Origin: Escherichia phage phiHAO2-2
Strand: one strand, 5' to 3'
Sequence record: PP079212.1
DNA length: 39,299 nucleotides
Shown: piece by piece, positions 671 to 1,814 of the stretch
Numbering within the stretch: the first letter of the stretch is position 1
How the letters are laid out: the number at the start of each line of letters is the position of its first letter
Program-made: the position numbers and the translations under genes
Notes under the pieces: model-generated
What the model was told of the DNA's origin: nothing
The model's input: only the letters and a program-made list of their open reading frames with translations
The model's database searches: none

Positions 671-1003
671 ATGGAACGTAACGCTAACGCATACTATGAG
701 CTGCTGGCTGCAACCGTTGAGCTGTTCAATGAGCGCATTCAGTACGACGAAATAGCTGAAGGCGATGATTACCATGATGCGCTACATGAAGTCGTAGACG
801 GTCAGGTCCCGCACTATTACCACGAGATTTTCACGGTGATGGCCGCTGATGGTATTGACCATGAGTTCGAAGACTCTGGGCTGATGCCTGAGACCAAGGA
901 TGTGACGCGTATACTGCAAGCTCGTATCTATGAGGCGCTTTATAACGACGTGTCTAATAGCTCGGATGTGGTCTGGTTTGAGGCTGAAGAGGACTGTGAG
1001 TGA
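671..1003 (+). CDS. ocr: Ocr (gp0.3) DNA-mimic anti-restriction protein
   Basis: 110 aa, acidic. Shares long identical stretches with T7 Ocr as recalled ([27 protein letters not shown]). RBS GAGAGGA upstream. First gene after the early promoters. Confidence 0.85.
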
Positions 1004-1200
1004 TGAGCAAGATCTACGCAATATATTATGTCGTGCCTAACTCATGGGGAGATGATCACATCATGCAAGAGCCTTGTTATTACGACGAGGACGCAGCAAA
1101 ACAGGCGTTCTACGATGGGTGCTACGAGATGATGAAGCGCGGGGCTTGCTACGTGGCTAATCACCATAGTCTGACCATAACGCTGACAGGCGGATACTGA
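1003..1200 (+). CDS. Hypothetical early protein
   Basis: 65 aa ORF starting at ATG 1003, which overlaps the ocr stop (TGATG). Early-region position. No recognisable homology. Confidence 0.45.
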   Translation: MSKIYAIYYVVPNSWGDDHIMQEPCYYDEDAAKQAFYDGCYEMMKRGACYVANHHSLTITLTGGY

Positions 1201-1270
1201 GTGACAGACGAGAGGTCATCGACTGATAGGTGGCCTCAAAGATTATCACTTACATTGATAGGAGTTAACT

Positions 1271-1360
1271 ATGAACATCGGTTACTGGGTATGCCTAGCG
1301 CCAGTTATCTGGATGATAGGTTATGGTATATATGATTGTATTAAACGGAAATCACTATGA
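1271..1360 (+). CDS. Small hydrophobic peptide (29 aa), hypothetical
   Basis: ATG 1271 preceded by a strong SD (TAGGAGTT). Translation MNIGYWVCLAPVIWMIGYGIYDCIKRKSL has one transmembrane-like segment. Stop overlaps the next start (ATGA). Confidence 0.35.
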   Translation: MNIGYWVCLAPVIWMIGYGIYDCIKRKSL

Positions 1361-1554
1361 GTCTTGTACTATTGATAGTCATAGGCTATGGACTTATCGC
1401 CTACATGCTGATGAGAGACATCAACAAGGCACGTAAAGTCTACAAATTCAACTATGTACGTCTGGGTCGATGGACTGTCCGTGAACGCAATGGACGATTC
1501 ATGCGCAACTTAGCGAACGTCTGGGATATAGCAACTATTGGGAGCAAACTGTAA
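1357..1554 (+). CDS. Hypothetical early protein with N-terminal hydrophobic segment
   Basis: 65 aa ORF. Translationally coupled to neighbours (ATGA at 1357 and TAATG at 1552-1556). Confidence 0.45.
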   Translation: MSLVLLIVIGYGLIAYMLMRDINKARKVYKFNYVRLGRWTVRERNGRFMRNLANVWDIATIGSKL

Positions 1555-1814
1555 TGAAAACCGTATACATTAACAAACCATCTATCCGTAGCCGTGTAGA
1601 GCAAATAGAGCGTGACGTGGTCTTACATCGCCGCATGAGGACTGAGGGCCATAAGTACGAACTGATGAATCTGGCGTTTGGTGGACGACCTATCACTGAC
1701 GATGGTAAACTTTTAGTCTCAGGCTGGAAGGCGATAGACCAACGGTCAACCATCAAGCACACGACTCACGGTGACTTCAGTCATCTTCACGCTAACCCAC
1801 TGATATGCAAGTAA
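1554..1814 (+). CDS. Hypothetical early protein
   Basis: 86 aa ORF between the ocr block and the RNAP gene. No kinase motifs, so it is not a gp0.7 homolog. Confidence 0.5.
   Translation: MKTVYINKPSIRSRVEQIERDVVLHRRMRTEGHKYELMNLAFGGRPITDDGKLLVSGWKAIDQRSTIKHTTHGDFSHLHANPLICK

Follow-up and report, generated by a model that had tools for sequence, protein, structure and literature searches.

In T7, the slot between gene 0.3 and the RNA polymerase (RNAP) gene 1 encodes, among others, gp0.4, an FtsZ inhibitor, gp0.6A, a reported MreB inhibitor, and the gp0.7 kinase. In T3, the early order is 0.3 SAMase, the RNase III site R0.5, genes 0.6 and 0.65, the 0.7 kinase and gene 1. Several phages of the related K1F type are under development for therapy. 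K1F, which has neither gp0.4 nor kil, mislocalises FtsZ and blocks division as T7 does; according to the study that reports this, the peptide behind the effect is not known (PMC9372555). The gp0.7 kinase was recently shown to be a broad anti-defence factor (PMC13645617), which makes it worthwhile to ask which T7-like lineages dispense with it and what they retain. Here, we analyse the early region (positions 1003-1814) of Escherichia phage phiHAO2-2 (PP079212.1), whose 39,299-bp sequence, hereafter called the window, is a complete T7-like phage genome of the genus Kayfunavirus (K1F group). We favour, with moderate confidence, the view that the host RNAP transcribes the early (class I) operon of this K1F-type Kayfunavirus and that the region is the accessory part of that operon, organized in two zones and encoding takeover factors. 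The first zone would be a short variable slot between gene 0.3 and an R0.5-like hairpin, which here holds a single open reading frame (ORF), A66, and whose content in relatives ranges from one small ORF up to a truncated kinase. The second would be a conserved block formed by the hairpin, the ORFs B29, C65 and D86, a predicted phage promoter and gene 1.

The interval between ocr and gene 1 spans 908 bp in the window; the corresponding stretch measures 1,892 bp in T7 and 1,616 bp in T3. It holds exactly four ORFs, all on the plus strand and none longer than 86 amino acids (aa): A66 (1003-1200), B29 (1271-1360), C65 (1357-1554) and D86 (1554-1814). The initial annotation had described an interval of about 900 bp with small ORFs at exactly these positions and without a gp0.7-like kinase, and both observations are borne out. 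Authentic T7 gp0.7 (359 aa) and T3 gp0.7 (369 aa), taken from RefSeq and compared by tblastn with all 39.3 kb, found no homologue (best E=1.3), and this rules out a kinase encoded elsewhere in the genome. The GFKKEDSGAAY and ITDPVS (DPV) motifs that mark gp0.7 (T7K; PHROG 2828) were likewise not found, either by the whole-window tblastn or in the ORFs of at most 86 aa. By homology search, the absence of the kinase is real and genome-wide. The T7 proteins gp0.4, gp0.5 and gp0.6A gave best E values of 0.84, 0.18 and 0.31 over the whole window, with none of these alignments inside 1003-1814. On its left, the region is bounded by ocr (gene 0.3; 671-1003, plus strand), which encodes the 110-aa Ocr DNA mimic (Pfam PF08684, E=8e-33; phrog_2568, E=7e-54) and is 66% identical to T7 Ocr (tblastn E=2e-30). 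Gene 1 (1912-4593, plus strand), identified from the ORF list and by RNAP comparison, encodes a T7-type single-subunit RNAP of 893 aa, which shares 53-55% identity with the N-termini of the T7 and T3 enzymes and 96-98% with Kayfunavirus relatives.

This kinase-less arrangement is widespread. The first 25 kb of the window share 97.5% identity with Escherichia phage phiHAO1-1 and about 95% with vB_EcoP_F, FFK3, SR04 and phiYIO1-1, and the stretch 600-1950 matches 245 phage records (53 over at least 80% of the region), with hosts mostly among Escherichia, Salmonella, Klebsiella, Enterobacter and Citrobacter. K1F, FFK3, CHX131, EPr2 and others all show ocr, small ORFs and the RNAP gene with no kinase. 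Judged by these records, an early region without the kinase is standard in K1F and shared by more than 200 deposited phages; it is the norm of the genus, and the region is a typical Kayfunavirus early region in which the sole feature peculiar to the window genome is the A66 fusion. The novelty that the initial annotation saw in these ORFs does not survive this comparison, the layout being standard, C65 and D86 backbone genes and A66 a deletion chimera. The kinase-less state is biologically interesting given the broad anti-defence activity of gp0.7 (PMC13645617), but it is a trait of the genus and not a discovery made in the window. In the record of Escherichia phage CY1 (OM937123; locus L003 in our numbering), the coding sequence at 1539-2048 annotated as 'protein kinase' is in fact an ocr homologue, 87% identical to the window Ocr, and such a misannotation could mislead surveys of kinase distribution.

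Where a kinase is present within the genus, it is a truncated cassette in the variable slot, 5' of the hairpin. A gp0.7 reduced to its kinase domain, about 243-254 aa long from its likely start, was found in seven relatives that bear D86 (L023, at 1381-2145, L024, L025, L027, L028, L029 and L031), and about 48 deposited phages carry this form, for example SAKp10309, ST29 and phage B1 (ORF5), usually with a S-adenosylmethionine (SAM) lyase instead of Ocr and with a DUF7300 ORF. In Kayfunavirus B1, the published order is SAM lyase, ORFs of 37, 66 and 41 aa, the 243-aa kinase, ORFs of 53, 64 and 108 aa, and RNAP (PMC12785254). B29, C65 and D86 co-occur with the kinase-domain-only gp0.7 in these related Kayfunaviruses and are therefore not kinase replacements. 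The same holds for C65 on separate grounds, since its T3 counterpart gp0.6 coexists with a full-length kinase. The initial annotation, in which the phage carries small ORFs instead of the kinase, was thus sound as an observation and only partly supported as an interpretation: neither the substitution that it implied nor the novelty of the genes is upheld.

From GenBank phages and IMG/VR, we assembled a set of 29 related loci and computed Nei-Gojobori ratios of non-synonymous to synonymous divergence (pN/pS) for all pairs of distinct orthologues (18-22 distinct sequences per ORF). The in-frame values were 0.27 for B29, 0.34 for C65, 0.35 for D86 and 0.17 for the C-terminal half of A66, against 0.73-1.72 for the same DNA read in the two other frames. 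Stops and starts overlap at TGATG (ocr/A66), ATGA (B29/C65) and TAATG (C65/D86), and Shine-Dalgarno-like purine runs precede A66, B29 and D86. Together, the low in-frame pN/pS, the overlapping stops and starts and the Shine-Dalgarno-like sequences show, at the level of the DNA, that the four ORFs are real protein genes under purifying selection, as the initial annotation had assumed, the 29-codon B29 included; for A66, this selection was measured on the C-terminal half. The overlaps also show an arrangement that would couple the translation of the four ORFs.

No family in Pfam, NCBIfam or PADLOC matched A66, B29, C65 or D86, and the exact sequences of the four proteins are absent from a collection of 15 billion proteins. 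The profile searches, together with the fold searches, assigned no housekeeping function, a result in keeping with the initial annotation. Its description of all the ORFs as unknown stands as regards function; in kind, C65 is known. This 65-aa protein (1357-1554; ORF list and BLASTP) has a predicted N-terminal transmembrane helix (residues 3-19, with a Kyte-Doolittle maximum of 2.54) and a basic tail, with an isoelectric point (pI) of 11.0. It is 43% identical over 63 aa to T3 gp0.6 (BLASTP, E=4e-11), which is also 65 aa long, and the two share TVRERNGRF in the basic tail. C65 matches phrog_2385 over positions 6-69 of 70 (E=1.2e-30), a family of 106 clusters that all come from T7-like phage contigs, and a sequence search of the PDB gave no match. 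The alignments thus show that C65 and T3 gp0.6 are homologous, and in the K1F record the 89%-identical copy already bears the name gene 0.6. In the T3 record, the gp0.6 gene lies 3' of R0.5 and 5' of genes 0.65 and 0.7. By their distribution, C65 and D86 are conserved backbone genes and not accessory genes with fast turnover.

D86 (1554-1814) is a basic protein of 86 aa (pI 9.9) and is always the last gene before gene 1. It belongs to phrog_7066 (E=3e-39), a family that forms 127 clusters at 90% identity and occurs exclusively on phage contigs about 40 kb in length, and a hidden Markov model (HMM) scan of 1.84 billion representatives recovered 11 clusters at 50% identity, all of the same family. 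A first AlphaFold2 model, built from close homologues only (predicted local distance difference test score, pLDDT, 61.7), was replaced by one based on a diversified alignment (pLDDT 80.8). The latter predicts a core helical hairpin (helices 11-30, 34-41 and 49-66; pLDDT 88-98) followed by a C-terminal tail of low confidence. This tail, ...HTTxGDFSHLHANPLICK, contains the most conserved part of the protein, (H/Y)T(T/S)xGDF(S/T/C)HL, and pN/pS falls to 0.19 for codons 43-86 and 0.24 for codons 65-86. Remote homology searches of Pfam, NCBIfam, PADLOC and the PDB (by sequence and by profile) were all negative for D86, and PHROG returned only phrog_7066; Foldseek found only the same family in BFVD and nothing with E of 1 or below in the PDB, and no DNA-binding fold was recognised in these fold searches. 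This shows D86 to be a lineage-restricted orphan fold. Zinc binding by the His/Cys-rich tail was considered and discarded, H69 and C85 being replaced in the family by Y/W and Y/F/L/I, respectively.

D86 is syntenic with T3 gp0.65, the ORF that follows gp0.6. The two families gave a weak profile signal, with an hhalign probability of 13.9% and a P value of 0.002 over 47 columns, in which the motif k..lm.(l/m)AYG(g/a) is shared; against the alignment of the 81-aa variant, the hhalign probability was 1.9%. E values in hmmsearch were 1.5-9. A jackhmmer search from the T3 gp0.65-like family recruited the C-terminal frame of the T7 'possible gene 0.6B' (L004, 1772-1969), which suggests that gp0.6B and gp0.65 may share a module located just upstream of the kinase in many T7-like phages. 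The annotation of D86 homologues is uneven: the 86-aa homologue of K1F (NC_007456; L008, 2208-2468), 85% identical, is left unannotated in the reference record, and many other records annotate forms of 108-139 aa with variable N-terminal extensions.

The boundary between the two zones is marked by a conserved RNA hairpin in the A66/B29 spacer (1198-1252, plus strand), detected by folding and by comparison with relatives. It consists of a 7-bp lower stem, a 7/8-nt internal loop and a 9-bp upper stem, with a minimum free energy of -23.1 kcal/mol (z=-3.24 vs shuffles). The upper stem is preserved in 17 of 19 relatives; it varies by G-C/G-U changes and by one compensatory replacement of a C-G by a U-A pair. 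The hairpin occupies the position of R0.5, which the T3 record locates just upstream of gene 0.6, and it resembles an R0.5-type site of the T7 group in size, stems, internal loop and conservation. It is thus a candidate RNase III site that probably separates an ocr-A66 message from a B29-C65-D86 message. An Rfam scan of positions 1-5500 gave no match. A structure of the RNase III R1 type was also sought in the D86/gene 1 spacer and rejected, the fold there being no better than shuffles (z=-0.83).

The right boundary of the region is a predicted phage-RNAP promoter in the gene 1 leader (1820-1842, plus strand), found by a site search for the full consensus CTTAACTATCACTATAGGACTC. Its +1 would fall at about 1837, 75 nt upstream of the RNAP gene. 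The window contains nine CACTATAGG sites, all on the plus strand, vs 0.33 expected by chance. The predicted gene 1 promoter is kept in all 29 relatives and varies together with the RNAP type: it takes the form AACCCTCACTATAGGA where the RNAP is about 80% identical and ACTATCACTAAAGGA in the group of L023. A phage promoter at this position implies a positive autoregulation of gene 1, if it acts as predicted. At the corresponding position, the T7 record has only E. coli promoter C. A further predicted phage promoter lies at 5363.

The variable slot of the window is occupied by A66 (1003-1200), an acidic chimeric ORF (pI 5.0) recognised by its split tblastn match and 65 aa long when counted from its ATG, although a GTG at 1000 is also open. 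Residues 1-32 derive from a family of 58-61 aa (phiHAO1-1 gp02, 61 aa; HC13_0003) and residues 33-65 from the widespread 37-42-aa family phrog_33188. Pairwise DNA alignment with phiHAO1-1 places the deletion junction at a 7-bp microhomology, AACAGGC (1100-1106, plus strand): 266 bp of phiHAO1-1 (L007, 1100-1365), lying between two AACAGGC copies, are missing from the window, in frame. The deletion took away the 3' half of gp02, the eight initial codons of the 41-aa gene and a 52-aa ORF whose slot bears the annotation 'NinH' in phage CHX131. The contiguous form of A66 occurs in 0 of 50,697 phage records, and in a search of 5.8 billion protein clusters no match extended over more than 60% of its length. 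By these comparisons, A66 is a recent accident of the window genome generated by deletion and not an evolved gene family. Its fused product, represented by a single sequence, may be inert. phiHAO1-1, the closest relative, has in its variable slot an extra ORF of 115 aa (L007, 1538-1885) with a weak Brinker/helix-turn-helix DNA-binding match (E=6e-5), which is missing from the window.

B29 (1271-1360), present in 19 of the 29 relatives examined, is a predicted membrane peptide: 29 aa long, single-pass and hydrophobic (core residues 8-24; pI 8.8). It is preceded by a strong TAGGAG Shine-Dalgarno sequence.

How might these genes act? By analogy with other T7-like phages, a role of the early ORFs in host takeover or anti-defence is plausible. 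In the organization that we favour, A66, B29, C65 and D86 would be made within minutes of the start of infection from the early transcript, and this transcript would probably be cut at the hairpin to yield a B29-C65-D86 mRNA. None of the four would be an enzyme, because they are too small and show no catalytic motifs. Their size, their early expression and the analogy with T7 early and middle proteins make it likeliest that they act stoichiometrically, by binding host proteins, as do T7 Ocr, gp0.4, gp0.6, gp1.2 and gp2. B29 and C65 would reside at the inner membrane and D86 in the cytoplasm, where it could act via its helical hairpin and conserved C-terminal peptide. Host transcription shut-off would be left to the homologue of gp2, the host RNAP inhibitor, located at 7872-8024. 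The small conserved block B29, C65 and D86 is the constant partner of gene 1.

It is tempting to relate this block to the division block of K1F. Between ocr and gene 1, K1F has no ORFs in common with the window other than C65 (89% identical) and D86 (85%), and this makes these two reasonable, though far from exclusive, candidates. Our first guess at a phenotype, offered tentatively and without considering it probable, is that C65 and/or D86 underlies the block of the FtsZ ring and of cell division in K1F-type phages; such an inhibitor would form a new class unrelated to T7 gp0.4 or lambda Kil. D86 could dock via its invariant C-terminal GDFSHLHxNPLI peptide, or C65 could act from the membrane. 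The search for the K1F cell-division inhibitor is in this way narrowed to a handful of short, directly testable genes.

Several points weigh against this picture as a whole. Both the cleavage at the hairpin and the activity of the gene 1 promoter are features that we infer from the DNA. The conservation of the 3' half of D86 shows a partial effect of linkage to the conserved gene 1 leader and does not reflect protein function alone: pS is 0.185 there vs 0.505 in the 5' half, because the 3' half adjoins the almost invariant leader. The assignment of the division block is a guess among several K1F early ORFs, K1F having also ORFs of 49 and 55 aa that are absent from the window, as well as small genes after gene 1, and no similarity of the window ORFs to gp0.4, gp0.6A or Kil was found. 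Finally, signature peptides of A66, B29, C65 and D86 are unmentioned in the literature searched, and the supplements of one accessory-gene screen do not include the four proteins.

Rather unlikely, but next in order, is the idea that the ORFs include at least one dedicated anti-defence protein, directed against specific host immune systems, that makes up for the lack of the broad-spectrum kinase. The ORFs adjoin ocr, in a part of the early operon that in T7-like phages houses anti-defence genes, and phages without a broadly acting kinase (PMC13645617) might need alternatives. Moreover, the content of the slot from gene 0.3 to the hairpin varies in a highly mosaic fashion among relatives, a pattern typical of arms-race loci. 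However, the mosaic part of the window holds only A66, the deletion chimera, and the conservation of B29, C65 and D86, also in kinase-bearing relatives and, for C65, in T3, fits a general takeover function better than a strain-specific counter-defence. The anti-defence idea fits the mosaic slot better than the conserved block. Neither did the four proteins resemble characterised anti-defence families: PADLOC gave only noise (DrmA, 11.9 bits) and Pfam, NCBIfam and the PDB searches by sequence and by fold nothing, a dedicated anti-defence library not being among those searched, and none of the four appears among the proteins in the screen supplements searched.

We consider it improbable, and less likely than a role in division inhibition, that D86 is a non-homologous functional substitute for the C-terminal, DNA-binding shut-off (SO) domain of gp0.7, a small protein made just ahead of the phage RNAP, binding DNA or the host RNAP and helping to silence host transcription. 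D86 holds the exact position of the SO domain, as the last coding sequence before the gene 1 leader, and is basic and helical. The two never occur together across 109 loci: the D86 HMM had no significant match in 80 gp0.7 loci, and the SO HMM none in any D86-bearing locus. In the seven kinase-carrying relatives with D86, the kinase stops about 20 aa past the DPV motif, without the SO domain, and phage B1 has the same layout. This exclusivity is nevertheless confounded by phylogeny, D86 marking one lineage and the SO domain others, and no DNA-binding fold is recognised for D86. Homology is rejected at the profile level. An alignment of 75 distinct SO domains from the 80 kinase loci gave a hhalign probability of 0.9% with the D86 family, so that D86 is not a detached SO domain; the weak profile signal and the synteny favour T3 gp0.65 instead, which coexists with a full-length gp0.7.

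It is, lastly, highly improbable that some of the ORFs, B29 and A66 especially, are chance or decaying frames and that the leader truly consists of regulatory RNA and promoters: B29 is indeed very short and often left unannotated, A66 stems from a recent deletion that cost one gene eight N-terminal codons and another its C-terminal half and occurs nowhere else, and conserved non-coding elements are present in the region, but B29 maintains its low pN/pS at a pS of 0.585 (1.24 and 1.38 off-frame) and has both a strong Shine-Dalgarno sequence and the ATGA overlap with C65, and the part of A66 kept from the 41-aa family is under selection among relatives, with the deletion in frame and the ocr-coupled start intact.

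Outside the region, we noted downstream of gene 1 (4612-5917) a phrog_8082 ORF (66 aa), a T3 gp1.05-like ORF (155 aa) and homologues of gp1.1 (59 aa) and of the dGTPase inhibitor gp1.2 (95 aa). At the left end (100-330), several short direct repeats of CCTACAGTC/ACCTACAG occur together with GACTATAGG-like motifs, upstream of a sigma-70-like promoter (459-488); these are probably terminal-repeat or phiOL-type elements.

The closest systems to the region of phiHAO2-2 are those of K1F, for which we used the RefSeq annotation, and of other Kayfunaviruses (vB_EcoP_F, phiHAO1-1, EcoDS1 with its 'Gp0.38'). They show the same order of ocr, small ORFs, gene 0.6, D86 homologue, promoter and gene 1, without gp0.7, and their counterparts of C65 and D86 are 83-91% and 72-91% identical, respectively. 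The content of the variable slot changes between phages, the fused A66 exists only in the window, and K1F lacks B29 and both families that contributed to A66. The genomes of Enterobacter phage B1, Klebsiella phage SAKp10309 and Salmonella phage ST29 contain the same 41-aa family, B29, C65, D86 and gene 1 leader. They differ in that their variable slot contains a kinase of about 243-254 aa that lacks the SO domain and, usually, in having a SAM lyase in the place of Ocr, neither of which is found in the window.

The resemblance to T7 is one of position. Its gp0.4, gp0.5, gp0.6A and gp0.7 occupy the same genomic slot and expression class, gp0.4 to gp0.6A are also short (47-53 aa) and gp0.5 is also small and hydrophobic, but no ORF of the window resembles any of the four proteins, and the window has neither kinase nor SO domain. 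The likeness to T3 goes further, with an R0.5-type hairpin, a 65-aa gp0.6 homologue predicted to be membrane-anchored and then a small basic ORF before gene 1. In T3, however, a 369-aa kinase with SO domain stands between 0.65 and gene 1, SAMase takes the place of Ocr, and both B29 and a phage promoter immediately in front of gene 1 are absent. D86 exceeds T3 gp0.65, a possible homologue (profile probability 14%), in length and ends in a C-terminal tail that gp0.65 lacks.

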